Shown in pieces: positions 1 through 30,016 of a DNA stretch of 33,233 nt. The position numbers and the translations under genes were made by a program. The stretch comes from Planctomycetota bacterium (GTDB taxonomy: Bacteria > Planctomycetota > Phycisphaerae > UBA1845), in the NCBI GenBank assembly GCA_022563615.1, contig JADFMZ010000001.1:1-33233 (forward strand), written 5' to 3'. The notes beneath the pieces were generated by a model. It saw only the letters and a list, made by a program, of their open reading frames with translations. It did no database searches and was not told the DNA's origin. Position 1 is the first letter of the stretch. The number at the start of each line of letters is the position of its first letter.

Positions 1-107
1 TCAAACGCTTCCCCATTGCTTTCGGGACCGGATTTCATTATCAATCTATTCCCACGGCATGGCGCGATCAGTAGGGCTGGGCTCAAGGGGACTCCTGCGA
101 TTCGTCC

Positions 108-2000
108 TTGACAACAAGCGTCGGCCGGGATGCGTTAAGAGGTAAAGCTTTGTCGCAACGATATGACATCATCGTCATCGGCGGCGGTCATGCGGGGGTG
201 GAGGCGGCCTGGGCGGCGTCGAGACTCGCAGCGCGAACGGCGCTGGTGACGATGCAATATGAGGCCATCGGACGCATGTCCTGCAACCCCGCCATCGGCG
301 GGCTCGGCAAGGGGCACATGGTCCGCGAGATCGACGCCCTCGGCGGATTGATGGGCCTGGCCACCGATCGCGCCGGTATCCAGTTCCGAATGCTCAATCG
401 ATCGAAAGGGCCAGCCGTCTGGGCGCCGCGTGCCCAGTGCGATCGCAAGGCGTATCCCAAGGCCGTCCAAACGCTCCTGGCGTCAGCGACGCACTTGGAT
501 GTCGTGGAAGGCTTGATCGAAACGATCGTCACCCAAGAACGGTCGGGCGAGGGGGCGGCCAAGCGCGTATGCGGCGTGCTCCTCAAGGACGGGCGACGGC
601 TCCATGCCGACGTCGTGATCCTGACGACGGGCACGTTCCTTCGGGCGTTGATGCATTGCGGCCCACAACAATCCGAAGGCGGGCGGGTCGGTGAGCCCAG
701 CGCGGTCGGATTGAGCGCCTGCCTCAAGGCGCTGGGGTTTACACTAGGACGACTCAAAACCGGTACGCCGCCGCGCGTTCATCGAGACACGGTTGATTTC
801 GAGCAATGCGAAGTTCAACCGGGCGACGACGTGCCGATCCCGTTTTCAGCCATGACCGACGCAATCACCCAACCGCAGGTCAATTGCTGGATAACATGGA
901 CCAATGCCCGCGTTCATGAACCGATCCGAGCCAACCTGCATCGCGCGCCGATGTATTCGGGACAAATCCAATCACGGGGACCACGATACTGCCCCAGCAT
1001 CGAGGACAAGATCGTTCGCTTTGCCGACAAGCCAAGGCACCAGATCTTTCTGGAGCCGGAAGGAACGGACGATGAACGCATCTACTGCAACGGCATCAGC
1101 ACGTCGCTGCCGCAGGATGTGCAGGACGCCTTCCTCCGCGAAGTGCCAGGCTTGCAACACGCGAAGATTCTGCAATACGGCTACGCGGTCGAGTACGATT
1201 TCGTACCCACTCACCAGACCCGGCTATCCCTGGAAACCAAGCTCGTAAGCGGGCTGTTCCTCGCCGGGCAGATCAACGGGACGAGCGGCTACGAGGAAGC
1301 CGCCGGACAGGGCGTCATTGCCGGCATCAACGCCGTGCGATCCCTGCAACCCGGTACGGAACCGTTCACGCTTGGCCGGGATCAAGCCTACCTCGGCGTG
1401 ATGATCGACGACATTATCACTCGACCACCGCCTGAGCCCTATCGCATGTTCACCTCGCGGGCCGAATACCGGCTCCTACTTCGCTCGGACAACGCCGACG
1501 AACGCCTGACCCCGATCGGCCGCGAACTGGGCCTCGTGGATGACGCACGGTGGAAGCGATTCTCGGCGAAGGATCGATCTCTTACGACGATTCGCCAGCT
1601 TTGCAGGAAAAACCGGTTCGAGGGCGTCGAAATGGAAACATGGTTGCGACGCCCCGACGTGAAGTTGGCTGCCCTTGCCGAAGTCCTCGCCCGGATCACC
1701 CCTCAAACCTTTTGCGCCGATGCCGTCCGCCAGGTGCTCGTCGAGGCGAAATACAGCGGGTACGTGGATCGCCAAGCCAAGCAAATTGAGCGGTTCCGCC
1801 GCCTTGAGTCCCTGGCGATCCCCTTGGGGACCGACTACGGCGTCATGACCGGTCTGCGTCACGAAGCACGGGAACGGTTGGGGCAAGTCGCACCTGCCAC
1901 GCTCGGGCAGGCCTCTCGCATCAGCGGCATCAGCCCGGCTGACATTACGACATTGTGGATCTACCTCACCGGACGTCGCGCCACTCGGACCTCGGCTTGA
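108..2000 (+). CDS. mnmG: tRNA uridine 5-carboxymethylaminomethyl modification enzyme MnmG (GidA)
   Basis: 630-aa ORF with the N-terminal FAD Rossmann motif DIIVIGGGHAGVEAA and conserved MnmG blocks (SCNPAIGG, GPRYCPSIEDK, FLAGQINGTSGYEEAA). Length is typical of the family. The start may be TTG 108 or TTG 150. Confidence 0.95.
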   Translation: MTTSVGRDALRGKALSQRYDIIVIGGGHAGVEAAWAASRLAARTALVTMQYEAIGRMSCNPAIGGLGKGHMVREIDALGGLMGLATDRAGIQFRMLNRSKGPAVWAPRAQCDRKAYPKAVQTLLASATHLDVVEGLIETIVTQERSGEGAAKRVCGVLLKDGRRLHADVVILTTGTFLRALMHCGPQQSEGGRVGEPSAVGLSACLKALGFTLGRLKTGTPPRVHRDTVDFEQCEVQPGDDVPIPFSAMTDAITQPQVNCWITWTNARVHEPIRANLHRAPMYSGQIQSRGPRYCPSIEDKIVRFADKPRHQIFLEPEGTDDERIYCNGISTSLPQDVQDAFLREVPGLQHAKILQYGYAVEYDFVPTHQTRLSLETKLVSGLFLAGQINGTSGYEEAAGQGVIAGINAVRSLQPGTEPFTLGRDQAYLGVMIDDIITRPPPEPYRMFTSRAEYRLLLRSDNADERLTPIGRELGLVDDARWKRFSAKDRSLTTIRQLCRKNRFEGVEMETWLRRPDVKLAALAEVLARITPQTFCADAVRQVLVEAKYSGYVDRQAKQIERFRRLESLAIPLGTDYGVMTGLRHEARERLGQVAPATLGQASRISGISPADITTLWIYLTGRRATRTSA

Positions 2001-2196
2001 AGGAATCCGCCGTCCTGAAATAACGGGACTTCATCGCTTGCAGGCAACTCGTCGGTCCATTCGTTACAGTGCCCCTTGCAGATTTTTTCGTTGACGCCGG
2101 ATGCTGCAATGTGTATCGTATAGGAAACATGGGGAACCTGGACAATATGCGTCGGGTTGGAATCCTCGGTTCGGGCAACATATATGGTCCAAGCGA

Positions 2197-2787
2197 ATGA
2201 ACGTCATGTCGGATATTCGAAACAAGTCGGTATTCACCACCGGTGAGGTGGCGCAGATCTGCAGGGTGAGCCAGCAGACGGTCATCCGCTGCTTCGACAG
2301 CGGACGGCTACAGGGATTCCGCGTTCCCGGATCGCGATTCCGGCGCATCCCGCGCGCTTCTCTGGTCACGTTCATGAAGACGAACCAGATCCCGCTCGAC
2401 AAACTTGAGACCGGTAGGAAGCGGGTTCTTGTTGTGGATGACGACGAAGCCATCGTGGAGATGTTTACCGAGCTGCTGGCGCGTCACGGCCAATTTGAGG
2501 TCAAGACCGCCCGAACCGGCTACGACGCCGGAATCCTTACCGAGCAGTTCAGGCCCGATGTCATCCTGCTGGATTTCAAGCTGCCCGACATCAATGGAAA
2601 CGTCGTATGCCGTACCATTCGAAGCAACCCGAACTACGAACACATACACATTATCGTCATCAGCGGCGTTGCAGATCCGGATGAGGTCAAGGAGTTGTTA
2701 GCGGCGGGGGCCAACGAATTCATACGCAAGCCGTTTGATATCAACGCCGTGATTTCACGCATCGCCGAAGCGGTCAAGGTCGCGTAG
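2197..2787 (+). CDS. Response regulator with N-terminal excisionase/MerR-like HTH and C-terminal receiver domain
   Basis: The segment VFTTGEVAQICRVSQQTVIRCFDSGRLQGFRVPGSRFRRIP resembles the excisionase-family HTH. It is followed by a canonical receiver (VLVVDDDE, ILLDFKLPDING, VISG, RKPF). I prefer ATG 2197 over the ORF-track start 2101. Confidence 0.85.
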   Translation: MNVMSDIRNKSVFTTGEVAQICRVSQQTVIRCFDSGRLQGFRVPGSRFRRIPRASLVTFMKTNQIPLDKLETGRKRVLVVDDDEAIVEMFTELLARHGQFEVKTARTGYDAGILTEQFRPDVILLDFKLPDINGNVVCRTIRSNPNYEHIHIIVISGVADPDEVKELLAAGANEFIRKPFDINAVISRIAEAVKVA

Positions 2788-7936: not shown

Positions 7937-8375
7937 CGTAGCGCGCCGATCTTCATCGTGGGCGGCTCTGACGTGATCCCGCGATCCCTTTTACCGGCCT
8001 CGGAAGCGTTGGATCGTCTGATAAGGCGACGTTGTCGATGGAAAGCGACGGCGCATGCGCGGTTCTGATGACGCTTCCCATCAGACGGGTTGCAACACAA
8101 GAGTTCCGCATGATGAACGGGACATCCTGACTATCGCGAAGGTATGGCTGACTCGGAAAAGATGGTGTGCCATGCGTTACAGCGTTCTCATTGATTGTGT
8201 ATGGCCATTTCGGGAAAATATCGCGGAAAAAACGGTCGTCGGACCGCCACAGAAAAATAGAGCTTGCTCTGGTATGGATCAGGGTTCTGACGCATGATCT
8301 AGCCGGTTCGAGTTCAGGGTGATGTGTCCCATTCGGCCGGCAGCATCCGGCCACAGCCGTTGCGTGGATCATTCA

Positions 8376-25954: not shown

Positions 25955-26794
25955 ATGTATTCCCGAAAACGACGATCACTCAACAACGTCTTCCTCGTGA
26001 TGCTCGCGGCCGTTGCCGTCATCCCCTGCACGACTGCACGCGCCGGGCCGATCAATACAGACGTTGCGATGACCCCCCGAAAGGGCGGCAGCATTCTTCG
26101 TCTGCAATACATTTATGGCGAAGCCAAAGGCCGCGGCGAGGTTGAGGAGATCCGCACCTCCAGGGTCAAGGCCACCTATGTATTCGGCCTCAAGAGCAAC
26201 CTTGCGCTCTTTCTGACGGAAACCTATGTGAACCGGAAGGTGGAGCGAATCACCCCTGAACGCGAACGTTTCGAGGACACTGAGGACGGCTTTGCCGACC
26301 TGACGTTCCTCGTCAAATATCGATTCTGGCAGGATGACCGCCGACCCGGAGAATCGCTCCGATGGGCCGTCCTGGGTGGGCTCAACATCCGAAGCGGCGA
26401 TTCGAAGTTCACCAGCGACAGTTACGATCCGATTCTCGGCACGGTGTTCACCTGGCCTCGGGATCGGGGCACGCTGAGCACGGACCTTGTCTACCAGTTC
26501 AACACGGGAGGTGGAGAATCGCGCCACGACGCCCTTCGCTATGACCTGGCCTACTCTTACCGGCTCACACCGGCTACCTACGAGCCAGGCCGCGCCTGGG
26601 AAATCAATGCCGTGGGGGAGCTCAACGGCCGCTACGTCACCGACGGGTCGCACGAAATCTTCCTGTCGCCCGGCTTGCAGTTCGTCACTCAACAATGGAT
26701 ATTCGAAACCTCCATCCAACTGCCCGTCCTTCAAGACCTTGACGGCCCCGAGACCGACTATCGAATCGTCGTCGGCCTTCGGTTTCAGTGGTAG
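25955..26794 (+). CDS. Outer-membrane beta-barrel protein (MetA-pathway/transporter-like)
   Basis: Signal peptide (VFLVMLAAVAVIPCTTARA), alternating amphipathic beta-strand pattern throughout, and a C-terminal VVGLRFQW ending in an aromatic residue, as in OMP barrels. Confidence 0.7.
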   Translation: MYSRKRRSLNNVFLVMLAAVAVIPCTTARAGPINTDVAMTPRKGGSILRLQYIYGEAKGRGEVEEIRTSRVKATYVFGLKSNLALFLTETYVNRKVERITPERERFEDTEDGFADLTFLVKYRFWQDDRRPGESLRWAVLGGLNIRSGDSKFTSDSYDPILGTVFTWPRDRGTLSTDLVYQFNTGGGESRHDALRYDLAYSYRLTPATYEPGRAWEINAVGELNGRYVTDGSHEIFLSPGLQFVTQQWIFETSIQLPVLQDLDGPETDYRIVVGLRFQW

Positions 26795-26939
26795 GGCTCC
26801 GCTCGCGAGCCCAGCCGGGAGTGAAACGCATGAACCGCAGCATCCGCAGCCTGTCGCCCTTCGTTGTTGTAATGGCATCCCTGTCTATGAAGTTGGCACG
26901 AGCGAACATTAGTCACGCTCGAAGCGCAGAAAGCTGTTC

Positions 26940-27773
26940 ATGAGTAAAGGCCGAATCATGGAAGATCGTCGAGCGAACCCGGCTTTTACCCTCATCGAGA
27001 TCCTCGTCGTTATCGCGATCATCGCGCTGCTCGTCGGGATTCTGGTTCCGGCTCTGTTCAGCGCCCGGCAGATCGCCAAGAAAGTAGTCTGTGGCACGCA
27101 TCTTCGCCAGCTCGGGGTGGCCACCGAACTGTACTACAACGAGAACAACTGTTATCCGCCACACAAGTGGAAGCTGCCGGATGGCTCGAACGACCGCTGG
27201 CCATCCGCCGTGGCGATCTTCCTGCGCTCCGAAGAGCTGCAGATATGTCCCTCGGTTCCTGAGTGGCGGGTTGGCCGAAACAACTCCTACGGGTTCAACT
27301 ACAAATACCTGGGAAGCCTTCGTCTGAACAAAAGCAGCCCGACCAGTCCATATGAGCGTTTTCCGGTCATTCGCGTTTCCTCGCCGGGAAAGACAATCGC
27401 CTACGCGGACAGCGACGGTACCGGTTGGGTAAAGCCCTATGATCCGAACGGCACGGACTTCGAAGCGATTGGGAATCACGCCTACACGCTTGATCCGACC
27501 TTCATTCCCATCTACTCATCGGAGACGATCAACAACGAAGGTGTGCAAGAGGCCTACGCATACCTCGACTATCGCACTTACATCTCGACACGGCACAAGG
27601 GCGGGTCCAACGTTGTGTGGGTGGATGGTCACGTTAGCGCGGTTTCACCGGGAGATGTCTATAAGGACAACCGTTTCTGGAACGGACTCGGCCGCGAAGA
27701 TCCGACGCGCGACCCACACGTCGGCACCCGCGTGGGGACGGGCGCATTTCGATTTCAGGATGAAATCGACTGA
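26940..27773 (+). CDS. Prepilin-type N-terminal cleavage/methylation domain protein (pseudopilin, H-x9-DG / DUF1559-like)
   Basis: The N-terminus NPAFTLIEILVVIAIIALLVGILVPAL is the type IV pilin-like methylation motif. The C-terminus HKGGSNVVWVDGHV fits the H-x9-DG motif common in PVC bacteria. Confidence 0.88.
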   Translation: MSKGRIMEDRRANPAFTLIEILVVIAIIALLVGILVPALFSARQIAKKVVCGTHLRQLGVATELYYNENNCYPPHKWKLPDGSNDRWPSAVAIFLRSEELQICPSVPEWRVGRNNSYGFNYKYLGSLRLNKSSPTSPYERFPVIRVSSPGKTIAYADSDGTGWVKPYDPNGTDFEAIGNHAYTLDPTFIPIYSSETINNEGVQEAYAYLDYRTYISTRHKGGSNVVWVDGHVSAVSPGDVYKDNRFWNGLGREDPTRDPHVGTRVGTGAFRFQDEID

Positions 27774-27896
27774 GCCCCTGCCATGAGCACCATGACGACC
27801 CTGCGCAGTGGCGCAGGTCGAGTCGTGAGGCTGAGGTACGACAGTCGCATCAGTGACACCGAACGTATCTACACGAAAAGAGGAGCCACAAGCCGA

Positions 27897-28640
27897 ATGA
27901 ACCTTATCGACGCCAGCCTGTCAGCTATCGCCCTTGCGACGGCGTTACTGCATACGAGTTCCTTCGCCGAGCCGCCGGGTGCCGGCGCATCGAAGGAAGA
28001 GCCATCGGCGCGAAAGCAAGTCGCCTTCCACGTCATCGGCCTGATGAAAACCCAGTCGGGCGCGACGTGACTGGGGTGACCGAACAAGGTCACGGAGTCC
28101 CTGGAAGGGACGCAGGCAACCAAGAGCATCACCTGGGATTACGCCAGGGATCGCGTGACGATTGGATACGATCCGAAGCGGATTTCGCCGGAGAAGCTCG
28201 CCAAGCTCATCACCGATCTGGGCTTCAAGGTAGAGGAGGTTGAGCCGCCGGGCGCAGGCACGGGCGCGGGTGCGAAGAAACACCAGCGCGTCAAAGCACC
28301 GATGCCGGACGACGCGCCGAAGTTTTTTCGCGAGGCCTTCGACAAGGCGCGTCGAGCGAATCATCCTATCGTGATTGATTTCTGGGCAAAGTGGTGCCCG
28401 CCTTGCCTCCAACTGAAGGAAGTCACCTTCCGCGATCCGAAAGTCGCCGGGCTCCTCGAAAAAGTTCAACTGATCTACGTCGATCTGGACCAATACCCGG
28501 CGCTCGGGAAGGCATACGGCGTCCAGGCCATACCGGATCTGTTTCTGGTGGACCGCCAGGGATGGATCGTGGACCGGCTTCAAGACTTCGAGCCGCCGGA
28601 TGCGTTCTTCGTTCGCCTTCGAAGACTGCTTGCGGAGTAA
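27897..28640 (+). CDS. Candidate selenoprotein: secreted HMA-like domain with a UxxU motif fused to a thioredoxin-fold domain (two in-frame TGA codons)
   Basis: ORF-track ORFs 27783..28070 and 28155..28640 share one frame. That frame is open from 27897 to TAA 28638-28640 except for TGA 28068-28070 and TGA 28077-28079. The translation has a signal-like N-terminus (MNLIDASLSAIALATALLHTSSFA). The next segment is KQVAFHVIGLMKTQSGAT-U-LG-U-PNKVTESLEGTQATKSITWDYARDRVTIGYDPKRISPEKLAKLITDLGFKVEEV, a beta-alpha-beta-beta-alpha-beta HMA-like pattern. A Gly/Ala/Pro linker and a thioredoxin fold follow (IVIDFWAKWCPPCLQLK, AIPDLFLVD). AGGAG lies about 11 nt upstream of ATG 27897. The alternative start GTG 28155 would fall inside a beta strand of the HMA-like domain. 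Confidence 0.55.
28076..28111 (+). promoter_or_regulatory. Candidate SECIS-like hairpins immediately downstream of / overlapping the two TGA codons
   Basis: Hairpin 1 is gtgacc (28076-28081), loop gaacaa, ggtcac (28088-28093). It contains the second TGA in its 5-prime arm. Hairpin 2 is gtccc (28097-28101), loop tggaa, gggac (28107-28111). Its G-containing loop starts about 23 nt after the second TGA. Neither has been tested against a SECIS model. Confidence 0.3.
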
Positions 28641-28789: not shown

Positions 28790-29011
28790 CTAAAGGTGGC
28801 TAACGAAATCCTCTATGGTCAATCCGGCATCACGAATCAGGCTTCTAAGTATTCCCCTGTCGAGTTCCTTGTGAAGGGGCACACACAAGTGCAATGGAAA
28901 CCCCTCTTTCTTCAATACTACATGACTACCGCGCTGCCTTTTTTTCTCAAATCCGGCGCGCCCAAACGCCTTTATCGCCTCAGCGCCGGATATTCGCGGA
29001 AGCTCAGGCAT
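28790..29011 (-). CDS. hicA: Type II toxin HicA family (mRNA interferase)
   Basis: 73 aa. The sequence ISGAEAIKAFGRAGFEKKRQRGSHVVLKKEG...LHKELDRGILRSLIRDAGL matches the HicA/YcfA dsRBD-like fold, including the conserved GSH. Confidence 0.88.
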   Translation of the reverse strand: MPELPRISGAEAIKAFGRAGFEKKRQRGSHVVLKKEGFPLHLCVPLHKELDRGILRSLIRDAGLTIEDFVSHL

Positions 29012-29327
29012 TCACAATAACCTGGTACGTTTCCTCGTCGGGGCGCTTGTTCGGTGCCTGCCTCCAGGGGATGGGCATTTTCTCTTCAACGTATGTCTCT
29101 AGAGTTAATTGTAACGCTTCGGCCACATCCTTTACCGCAGACGGGAAATCGGCTCCTTGGCCTACGACGCCGGGAAGCGTTGCGACATAAGCAACGTATC
29201 CGCTGTCTTCACCACGAGAGACGCGAATCTCGCAGCTATACCCGAGGGCCTCTGGCGGATTGGCGGTTCTCCAGCTTGGTTCCACCGGAATAATCGTTGC
29301 TCCGACGGTTTCTCGCGTCTCAATCAT
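29004..29327 (-). CDS. hicB: HicB-family antitoxin N-terminal-domain protein (no DNA-binding domain)
   Basis: 107 aa. The sequence YSCEIRVSRGEDSGYVAYVATLPGVVGQGADFPSAVKDVAEALQLTLETYVEEKMPIP is the HicB/UPF0150 partial RNase H-like fold. It overlaps hicA by 8 nt. AAGGAGG precedes its ATG, inside the 3-prime end of the upstream gene. Confidence 0.82.
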   Translation of the reverse strand: MIETRETVGATIIPVEPSWRTANPPEALGYSCEIRVSRGEDSGYVAYVATLPGVVGQGADFPSAVKDVAEALQLTLETYVEEKMPIPWRQAPNKRPDEETYQVIVNA

Positions 29328-29757
29328 TTGAACCCTCCTTACTCGGCAATTTGGCCACTTGGATGCGAACCGACCCGATCATCGTTTCATCGGTCCAACA
29401 CTCAAAGCTGTAAATACCCGCTCTTGGAAGAGGAAACGGTGGTATCTGGACGACGATATCCAGCGGCGTTAGCGGATCATTGCTTTGAATTCGCATCGGC
29501 TTGCTTTCCATCAGGATTTGGTTGTCGTGTAGGCTGACAAATCGCAATTGCAACACGACTTCACCGATAACGTCCACCAGCAGAATAAACGCAAAGGCTG
29601 AAAAGCTGGTTACACTTGGGAACCCAGAGCTAAAGATTTTGCTGAAAGTTCCGCAAATAATCCGCTTACCCGTCTGGTGATCGGTGTAAATGCGGTCAGC
29701 GAGAACTAGCGCTTGAAGAACCGGCAAGGAGTTTGATTTCTTCACGTCGCAACCCAA
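29320..29757 (-). CDS. Uncharacterised 145-aa protein translationally coupled to hicB
   Basis: The ORF overlaps the hicB start by 8 nt, and the hicB Shine-Dalgarno lies within its last codons. The sequence appears beta-rich (ALVLADRIYTDHQTGKRIICGTFSKIF, EVVLQLRFVSL, GIYSFECWTDETMIGSVRIQV). I recognise no catalytic motif. The start is TTG 29757 or GTG 29745. Confidence 0.65.
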   Translation of the reverse strand: MGCDVKKSNSLPVLQALVLADRIYTDHQTGKRIICGTFSKIFSSGFPSVTSFSAFAFILLVDVIGEVVLQLRFVSLHDNQILMESKPMRIQSNDPLTPLDIVVQIPPFPLPRAGIYSFECWTDETMIGSVRIQVAKLPSKEGSND

Positions 29758-29779
29758 TCTTGCCGTTTATGAAGAACCA

Positions 29780-30016
29780 TCACTCAGTCTTCGACTCTAA
29801 GCTCTTCCCATGGACGCTCTTTCTGATCCACTCCGGTGTAATCGTGGTGGCCTTTCGCTTTGCGCTTCTTAGGAGTGTGTTTCGCGCCCACGACGAAGTA
29901 CTCAGACCACTCGATCTGGCTGCAACGTCCAAGAGACGGCGATCTTCGCGTGTCATTCTGATCCTAAGCACGCTCGTCTTGCGCTCAACATCGGCTTTCC
30001 TTGGCCTGCCCATCAC
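29780..30016 (-). CDS. Ribbon-helix-helix (CopG/MobC/DUF1778-like) DNA-binding protein
   Basis: 78 aa. KTSVLRIRMTREDRRLLDVAARSSGLSTSSWARNTLLRSA fits the beta-strand plus two-helix RHH pattern. It is the first gene of the minus-strand cassette. The start is GTG 30016 or ATG 30013. Confidence 0.75.
   Translation of the reverse strand: MMGRPRKADVERKTSVLRIRMTREDRRLLDVAARSSGLSTSSWARNTLLRSAKRKATTITPEWIRKSVHGKSLESKTE

Follow-up and report, generated by a model that had tools for sequence, protein, structure and literature searches.

A predicted exported HMA-thioredoxin fusion protein with two in-frame UGA codons at its metal-binding motif

Results

Two reading frames joined across two TGA codons

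The plus strand of a 33,233-nucleotide stretch of contig JADFMZ010000001.1 (the window) holds two open reading frames (ORFs), 27783..28070 and 28155..28640, that lie in one common frame, and the only stops between them are a TGA at 28068-28070 and a TGA at 28077-28079, with CTG GGG in between. An earlier sequence-based annotation of the window (the original prediction) had made the same observation and proposed that both TGAs encode selenocysteine (Sec, U) in a single secreted protein, in which a heavy-metal-associated (HMA) domain with a UxxU motif is connected by a linker to a thioredoxin domain with a WCPPC motif. Direct reading confirmed the frame: the read-through translation is ...GLMKTQSGAT-TGA-LG-TGA-PNKVTESLEGTQATKSITWDYARDRVTIGYDP..., and over a wider region it runs unbroken across both codons (...VAFHVIGLMKTQSGAT-TGA-LG-TGA-PNKVTESLEGTQATKSITWDYARDRVTIGYDPKRISPEKLAKLITDLGFKVEEV...). 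The likely start is ATG 27897, with a GAGGAG 11 nt upstream and homologues that begin at the equivalent Met (MNRINASLSAFALATALL...), in agreement with the start coordinate originally given. We consider it very probable that 27897..28640 is one gene for an exported selenoprotein of 247 residues with two Sec, with the following features.

27880..27885, plus strand: putative Shine-Dalgarno-like GAGGAG, 11 nt 5' of the ATG, read directly from the sequence
27897..28640, plus strand: probable complete coding sequence of the selenoprotein, 247 codons and a TAA stop, two predicted Sec codons (based on frame, domains and homologues)
27897..27968, plus strand: predicted signal peptide MNLIDASLSAIALATALLHTSSFA for periplasmic export (hydrophobic N-terminus kept in homologues; judged by eye)
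28017..28241, plus strand: HMA domain, aa 41-115, spanning both TGAs (Pfam PF00403; alignment to ATP7B, CopA and MerP domains)
28068..28070, plus strand: TGA, predicted Sec58 and first UxxU ligand (TGA in 33/33 distinct sequences; aligns to the first Cys of GMTCxxC)
28077..28079, plus strand: TGA, predicted Sec61 and second UxxU ligand (TGA in 33/33 distinct sequences, TGT (Cys) in L121; aligns to the second Cys)
28242..28316, plus strand: linker rich in Pro, Gly, Ala and Lys, varying in length and sequence among homologues
28317..28637, plus strand: thioredoxin-like domain with WCPPC and cis-Pro (P213) (Pfam PF00085; PDB thioredoxins up to 54.8 bits)
28392-28394, 28395-28397 and 28404-28406, plus strand: W166, C167 and C170 of WCPPC, within the thioredoxin-like domain

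The encoded protein would thus begin with a signal peptide predicted to direct export, followed by an HMA domain containing S-G-A-T-U-L-G-U-P, a flexible linker and the WCPPC-bearing thioredoxin-like domain.

For profile and structure-sequence searches, both TGAs were written as Cys. The HMA profile PF00403 then scores 34.6 bits (cutoff 24.8) over aa 54-111, and the thioredoxin profile PF00085 scores 46.6 bits (cutoff 23.5). In a phmmer search against the PDB, SGAT-C-LG-C-PNKV pairs with KGMT-C-AS-C-VSNI of the ATP7B metal-binding domains, with weaker alignments to CopA, CopZ, MerP and MerA domains. Both TGAs therefore fall exactly at the CxxC columns of the HMA GMTCxxC site, both of which are Cys in solved HMA structures, bearing out the placement that had been proposed. 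The alignment is consistent with a complete beta-alpha-beta-beta-alpha-beta HMA fold. Ahead of the first TGA, the loop exceeds that of the canonical GMTC motif by about six residues, a caveat that had been raised from the start and that holds; the loop itself is invariant across the family (G48, K51, S54-G55-A56-T57). On the thioredoxin side, C167, C170, P213 and W166 are all invariant in an alignment of six sequences. W166 is usual, not universal, being replaced by Ser in L103 and P0044 (L numbers denote related loci, P numbers public protein records), while the CxxC pair and the cis-Pro are kept throughout. In NCBIfam, this part is matched best by the C-terminal, DsbD-like end of TsoB (61.4 bits); DsbD itself reaches 37 bits.

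Both TGA codons are conserved across the family

A protein search with the read-through sequence returned 24 homologues, none full length: all were called as C-terminal fragments of 159-203 aa covering ~65% of the query. For seven of them (41-72% protein identity) we inspected the DNA, where the frame runs upstream through two TGAs as SGAT-TGA-(L/M)-G-TGA-P. At E<=1e-30, an exhaustive phmmer search with the fragment that follows the second TGA produced 30 cluster representatives. Nearly all of them start within a few residues of the TGA pair, which marks them as truncated gene calls. The sole read-through record among these 30 is P0044, which has neither Sec nor Cys at its second-HMA site.

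Metagenomes were scanned with the pattern GGNGCNACNTGHNTGGGNTGHCCN7GTNAC, which accepts TGA, TGC or TGT at either site. There were 32 matches, 31 of which are genuine HMA-thioredoxin members, and these carry TGA at both sites in 31/31 cases; the remaining one, L098, is a chance pattern match lacking homology and was discarded. The 31 members were picked through the flanking context SGAT-x-xG-x-P..VT, a bias from which the protein-based searches are free. The resulting distinct set, including the window, comprises 33 sequences, besides which there are two sequences cut by contig ends and one distant relative. The TGA/TGA arrangement is present in 33/33 distinct sequences, in the two truncated ones and in the distant relative, at 33-96% protein identity, and no full-length CxxC form was found among homologues from the protein searches or the metagenome scan allowing Cys codons.

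Three relatives are informative in their deviations or their distance. L121 (P0066) reads TGA-ATG-GGA-TGT, which gives U-M-G-C, a UxxC motif and a Sec/Cys pair at the second column. L122 (P0044) belongs to a clade with tandem HMA domains (described below); its first HMA has U-x-x-x-U and its second lacks Sec and Cys (KAGIILGEGP). L123, only ~33% identical to the window protein, retains SGAT-U-FG-U-P. The two halves are fused in all homologues read as DNA, so that the homologue comparison originally called for came out as expected, with TGA at both columns and the halves always joined, and L121 supplies a Cys at the second. Among the related loci, L004, L006 and L008 belong to the assemblies GCA_022572845.1, GCA_054038375.1 and GCA_044233465.1. 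No relative was found in viral contigs. A scan of genome contigs with protein alignment yielded mostly generic thioredoxins (DFWA[KE]WC) and no family member; another pattern used there demanded a Cys codon and was unable to match TGA.

The occurrence of the same TGAs in independent assemblies rules out an assembly error, a check that the original prediction had asked for. A pseudogene, that is, an HMA-thioredoxin gene killed by two nonsense mutations, would fit the two in-frame stops and the splitting of the gene by gene callers. However, the same TGAs recur in 33 distinct sequences, the most divergent at about 33-40% identity, so they are not there by chance, as had been argued from the window's own sequence, and there are no further stops or frameshifts. 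The pattern of variation also speaks against it. Across 33 distinct 120-nt segments, minor-allele fractions at codon positions 1/2/3 were 0.08/0.05/0.31 in the ten codons 5' of the first TGA and 0.20/0.23/0.37 in the codons past the hairpins described below; this concentration at third positions indicates that both flanks are translated. We regard the chance of a pseudogene as practically negligible.

Alternatively, the locus could hold two genes, one for a small exported peptide ending at the TGA and one for a cytoplasmic thioredoxin starting at GTG 28155. Public annotation presents it in this way, for example in P0014, a 'thioredoxin family protein' of 159 aa, with 57-aa upstream ORFs. Against this, the 75 nt from the second TGA to the GTG show conservation at the protein level and supply the rest of the HMA fold, and the called starts are scattered across query positions 15-47. 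In 18/33 relatives, GTC or GTA stands in place of GTG 28155, the sole downstream start in the window, so there is no conserved internal start, and we judge the two-gene arrangement highly improbable.

Of 23 window genes with Pfam support that were checked, 10 terminate in TGA, among them mnmG, lpxK, trpS and scpA, and this codon is the commonest true stop in the window. The codon is therefore not reassigned, as the original prediction had argued from neighbouring genes. Together, TGA conservation, coding flanks, the lack of a conserved internal start and the use of TGA as a stop exclude, for practical purposes, a pseudogene, two genes, an assembly error and a variant code. Other TGA-split ORFs in the window are only the noise typical of high-GC sequence; one candidate, at 8295, has an upstream part that is not protein-like.

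The split annotation has further traces. An out-of-frame ORF, 'MTGVTEQGH...' (+1 frame), begins within the TGA region at window 28067-28243, and in at least one public record, P0167, which starts MNGVTEQGH..., its counterpart has been called as the protein start, an annotation artefact of unrecognised Sec codons.

Two conserved hairpins follow the TGA codons

Immediately 3' of the first TGA, the RNA can form two hairpins.

28076..28093, plus strand: hairpin 1, GUGACC-GAACAA-GGUCAC, with the second UGA inside the stem (-9.1 kcal/mol)
28097..28111, plus strand: hairpin 2, GUCCCU-GGA-AGGGAC, the best candidate for a bacterial selenocysteine insertion sequence (bSECIS), based on covariation and spacing, and lying wholly outside the search pattern

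Synonymous sites are frozen across the hairpins (Leu CTG in 33/33, Gly GGG in 32/33, Val GTC in 31/33), and position 28088 is G in 33/33 though its codon encodes six different amino acids. In hairpin 1 the five inner pairs are near-invariant and the outermost G-C is present in 23/33; this hairpin is under RNA-level selection as well. In hairpin 2, three pairs change on both sides, from GC to AU, from UA to GU (seven sequences) and from CG to UA, and in L123 the UA/GU pair is G-C. Pairing holds in 95.5% of all cells, compared with 33-50% when the partners are slid, and the observed covariation was reached by 0/500 shuffles.

Published bSECIS rules call for a loop of 3-9 nt, a stem of >=4 bp, a G at loop position one or two, a spacing of 16-37 nt from UGA to loop and a minimum free energy (MFE) no higher than -7.5 kcal/mol (PMC13188914). 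The stem of hairpin 2 comprises 6 bp, and its loop is GGA (or UGGAA), with G as the first loop base. The loop starts 32 nt after the first UGA and 23 nt after the second, both inside the 16-37 nt range, and the MFE with flanking pairs is -8.9 kcal/mol. Hairpin 2 is thus a candidate bSECIS for both UGAs, agreeing with the consensus in loop, G and spacing, its energy being marginal when it is folded alone. The search for a SECIS element proposed originally therefore yielded a conserved, co-varying stem-loop. Hairpin 1 is unlikely to be the SECIS of the first UGA: its loop begins only 11 nt past that codon, below the 16-nt minimum, and its stem holds the second UGA. In the tandem-HMA clade, the U-x-x-x-U of the first HMA is likewise trailed by two hairpins with visible compensatory changes, and here the spacing rule would give each UGA one hairpin.

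If both UGAs are read through, the inserted residue need not be Sec: near-cognate tRNAs (Trp, Cys, Arg) or a suppressor tRNA, possibly aided by the hairpins, could do so free of selenium. The fact that Sec machinery was not seen in the window and related loci agrees with this. On the other hand, recoding falls precisely on the columns of the metal-ligand Cys, and there is a UxxC variant; the bSECIS consensus is matched by the downstream hairpin; NCBIfam recognises a family of HMA UxxU selenoproteins; and TGA is the prevailing true stop in the window. We therefore consider selenium-free read-through very unlikely. Sec insertion at both UGAs is the reading we adopt from these sequence comparisons. 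Complete Sec machinery has been recorded in some Planctomycetes (PMC4807772). The window itself looks planctomycetal, because a 65%-identical homologue carries the label Planctomycetes bacterium and a DUF1559 gene is present, a kind of gene typical of that phylum.

Gene neighbourhood in the window and in relatives

The nearest genes upstream of the selenoprotein gene in the window are these two.

25955..26794, plus strand: outer-membrane protein, PF13557 (Phenol_MetA_deg), a conserved upstream neighbour
26940..27773, plus strand: DUF1559/prepilin-type gene, not part of the system, situated between the PF13557 gene and the selenoprotein gene

In the window's clade (L105, L108, L099/L110, L004, L114 and L117), the PF13557 gene is immediately 5' of the selenoprotein gene, and the DUF1559 gene is missing at this position in L004 and L105. 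Compared with these two loci, window 26793-27858 is an insert of ~1.07 kb carrying the DUF1559/prepilin-type gene. On the 5' side of the insert, at ~26830-26885, there is a leftover L105-like selenoprotein gene start (MNRSIRSLSPFVVVMASLS), and the signal peptide of the working window gene is L004-like. Directly 3' of the selenoprotein gene, window 28790-30016 (minus strand) contains a HicA toxin/HicB-like antitoxin pair, a DUF6941 gene and a NikA-like mobilisation-protein fragment, which suggests a small mobile or accessory patch. A ClC channel gene is also found downstream, and no DsbD/CcdA-type membrane partner is present in the window; a DsbD_2 gene occurs near L003.

In relatives, the family gene is repeatedly linked to mercury-resistance (mer) genes. 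L100 has the order MerT-HMA, MerA, family gene, and the MerA directly upstream is a true one by NCBIfam (TIGR02053, 508.7 versus a cutoff of 454.45). In L006 the C-terminal end of MerA is directly 5' of the family gene. MerT-HMA genes adjoin it in L003, L095, L100, L102, L113, L118 and L089/L112, with RND/TolC efflux genes nearby in L003 and L095. In L123, a Cys-type HMA gene (2-262, plus strand; GMTCAGC) is directly 5' of the UxxU HMA-thioredoxin gene, so that Cys-type and Sec-type HMA proteins share one locus.

These neighbourhoods bear on what the UxxU site does. It could, in a true selenoprotein, act as a redox relay or as a carrier of selenium or sulphur, its diselenide cycled by the thioredoxin, making the protein a periplasmic oxidoreductase. 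The fused thioredoxin with its intact CxxC would suit such a role, as would the SPT-U-xx-C thioredoxin-fold-like module or PDZ domain added in some relatives, and the window clade is free of mer genes. Conversely, the fold and the position of the motif are those of metal-binding HMA domains, many relatives adjoin MerT-HMA or MerA genes, and the tandem clade's N-terminal HMA reaches 77 bits against the UxxU metal-binding family and 68 against MerP. We consider such a redox or carrier role in place of metal binding unlikely, and favour metal binding by the UxxU site.

Family variants and a second candidate family

Seven loci (L091, L092, L100, L102, L111, L113 and L122) form the tandem clade, in which two HMA domains precede the thioredoxin. 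The first HMA has GMT-U-x-x-G-U (UxxxU) and the second SGAT-U-x-G-U, giving four in-frame TGAs.

L089 and L112 (same sequence) and P0036 have a C-terminal PDZ extension that continues as ...KKVMVGLSGAET-TGA-TGA-PSTRFESGAL..., followed by ~100 more plausible in-frame codons. This TGA-TGA represents either two consecutive stops or U-U, a dipeptide within an additional thioredoxin-like module. The PDZ-extended form matches the NF041199 Trx7/PDZ (seleno)protein weakly (35.9 versus 300 bits).

Beyond the window, a second candidate selenoprotein family adjoins HMA(UxxU)-thioredoxin genes or is fused to them. Its motif is ...PLRDxFNxxKxKxRF(I/V)A(I/L)LSPT-TGA-(G/P)(G/A)-C-V.GARAV...IVWIPML..DN...DDPRV, which looks like a UxxC motif in a thioredoxin-type fold. 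It occurs in L003 (~780-1640, plus strand), L094 (~862-1470, minus strand) and L007 (625-1350 and ~2080-2607, plus strand), is fused C-terminally in L119, P0025 and P0039, and is partial in L107, L115 and L116. With U read as C, its read-through sequence has no Pfam match and no NCBIfam match.

Discussion

We propose that both UGAs are recoded as Sec, steered by the RNA structure just 3' of them, and that the product would be exported. In the periplasm, the two selenolates might hold a soft metal ion in the manner of MerP or CopZ, most likely Hg(II), given the mer-gene neighbours in relatives, with Cu(I) as an alternative. The fused thioredoxin could keep the UxxU site reduced, or re-reduce a diselenide, for metal binding and hand-over. 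In relatives the metal may pass to a MerT-type importer, and in the window's clade possibly to the PF13557 outer-membrane protein encoded alongside. The sequences themselves show an unbroken gene, conserved TGAs that fall on the CxxC columns, a conserved and co-varying hairpin and linkage to mer genes in relatives; Sec insertion itself, export, which metal is bound and the passage of electrons from one domain to the other are inferred. We place the overall explanation, a recoded, exported HMA-thioredoxin metal binder with two Sec, at a probability of roughly 0.8; it retains the core of the original prediction, supported by TGA conservation, the fusion, the Sec/Cys pair in L121, the bSECIS-like hairpin and the use of TGA as a stop. 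The more specific mechanism, an Hg or Cu trap with a built-in reductase, seems to us about an even bet.

Several observations weigh against this explanation. No selA, selB, selD or tRNA-Sec was found in the 33-kb window, which has no selenium genes, or in 39 related loci, the extent of that search. Rfam gave no SECIS or other credible match, either at gathering thresholds over the entire window or under permissive settings in 27900-28300. Hairpin 2 alone folds at -7.4 kcal/mol, marginally short of the -7.5 rule, and hairpin 1 lacks covariation, parts of its stem being fixed by the search pattern. Since the metagenome scan selected on SGAT-x-xG-x-P..VT, Cys forms in another context could have escaped it. 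As the window has no mer genes, the assignment of the metal relies on other clades. Finally, a thioredoxin dithiol may be, judging by redox potentials, a thermodynamically poor reductant of a diselenide.

The broadest interpretation is that these genes represent an undescribed family of exported HMA(UxxU)-thioredoxin proteins, always Sec-containing as sampled, that form a self-re-reducing trap for Hg(II) or other soft metals, with up to four Sec and a two-hairpin recoding element, and with links to the SPT-U-xx-C family and to mer genes. We hold this combined view tentatively, at somewhat less than even odds. Dozens of public family sequences are called as an orphan of 57-95 aa plus a 'thioredoxin family protein', and reading UGA as Sec restores one protein, predicted to be exported and to handle metal. 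A bis-selenolate HMA site should bind Hg(II) or Cu(I) far tighter than the bis-thiolate sites of MerP or CopZ, and, given the mer neighbours, a link between selenium and mercury in marine and sediment Planctomycetota can be tested directly. With UGAs 6 nt apart and two conserved hairpins, a layout that the UxxxU of the tandem clade repeats, the locus may offer a compact natural system for studying the way in which neighbouring Sec codons are served by one or two SECIS elements. The family is sizeable, widespread and unannotated, and would extend the known theme of Sec in HMA and mer-type metal proteins.

Comparison with known systems

Neither the window protein nor any of three related full-length forms reaches the cutoff of any model in NCBIfam release 20.0. 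The best HMA-type match is NF041115, the 'UxxU_metal_bind' metal-binding (seleno)protein, which shares the HMA fold and the replacement of both ligand Cys by Sec. NF041115 proteins are stand-alone domains of roughly 74 aa, whereas the window protein has a predicted signal peptide, a loop six residues longer and a fused thioredoxin, and although it carries UxxU it scores only 31.7 bits against the 95-bit cutoff. Even the N-terminal HMA of the tandem clade, at 77.2 bits, falls below that cutoff.

MerP (TIGR02052) and the MerTP fusions (NF033556) resemble the window protein as periplasmic HMA proteins with a two-ligand soft-metal site, and relatives of the window gene have merT/merA genes around them. 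They differ in that the window protein has a thioredoxin domain and no mer genes within 33 kb; it scores 30.3 bits to NF033556 (cutoff 180), and TIGR02052 (cutoff 92.55 bits) is not among its NCBIfam matches. A Sec-containing 'Mercuric transport protein MerP' has been predicted in the Global Ocean Sampling (GOS) ocean metagenome (PMC2398784). The MerT/CopZ fusion-like heavy metal transport selenoprotein NF045683 also places Sec in HMA/mer-type metal handling, but it is membrane-bound via MerT and has another Sec motif. It gives no match to the window protein and matched only neighbouring MerTP genes of related loci, below cutoff.

For the thioredoxin half, TsoB (NF045694), a selenoprotein resembling a rhodanese/DsbD fusion, aligns only through its C-terminal thioredoxin-like part, at 61.4 bits against the 805 bits that, together with a rhodanese domain, define membership. 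SelL, reportedly described by Shchedrina and colleagues in 2007 as a eukaryotic thioredoxin-fold selenoprotein with a UxxU diselenide, similarly has two Sec three positions apart that can form a diselenide. In SelL the UxxU is said to be at the active site of the thioredoxin fold, whereas in the window protein it would be in the HMA domain and the thioredoxin keeps CxxC. The gamma domain of DsbD, and TlpA acting on ScoI, are periplasmic thioredoxin-like reductases that keep the Cys of metallochaperones reduced. The role proposed here, a thioredoxin-like domain maintaining a metal site in reduced form in an oxidising compartment, is the same, and the window protein differs by joining reductase and metal site in one polypeptide and by its predicted selenol ligands.

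The original prediction called the architecture rare. The fusion is uncatalogued in the models checked, has no entry in a review's selenoprotein table and is not mentioned in the deep-Sep paper; the architecture is less unprecedented as regards its UxxU HMA part, such selenoproteins being catalogued already in NF041115, in that review table and, as MerP, in the GOS survey. HMA selenoproteins being known, HMA(UxxU)-thioredoxin is not categorically new and is not a member of NF041115; it is a new architecture and clade.

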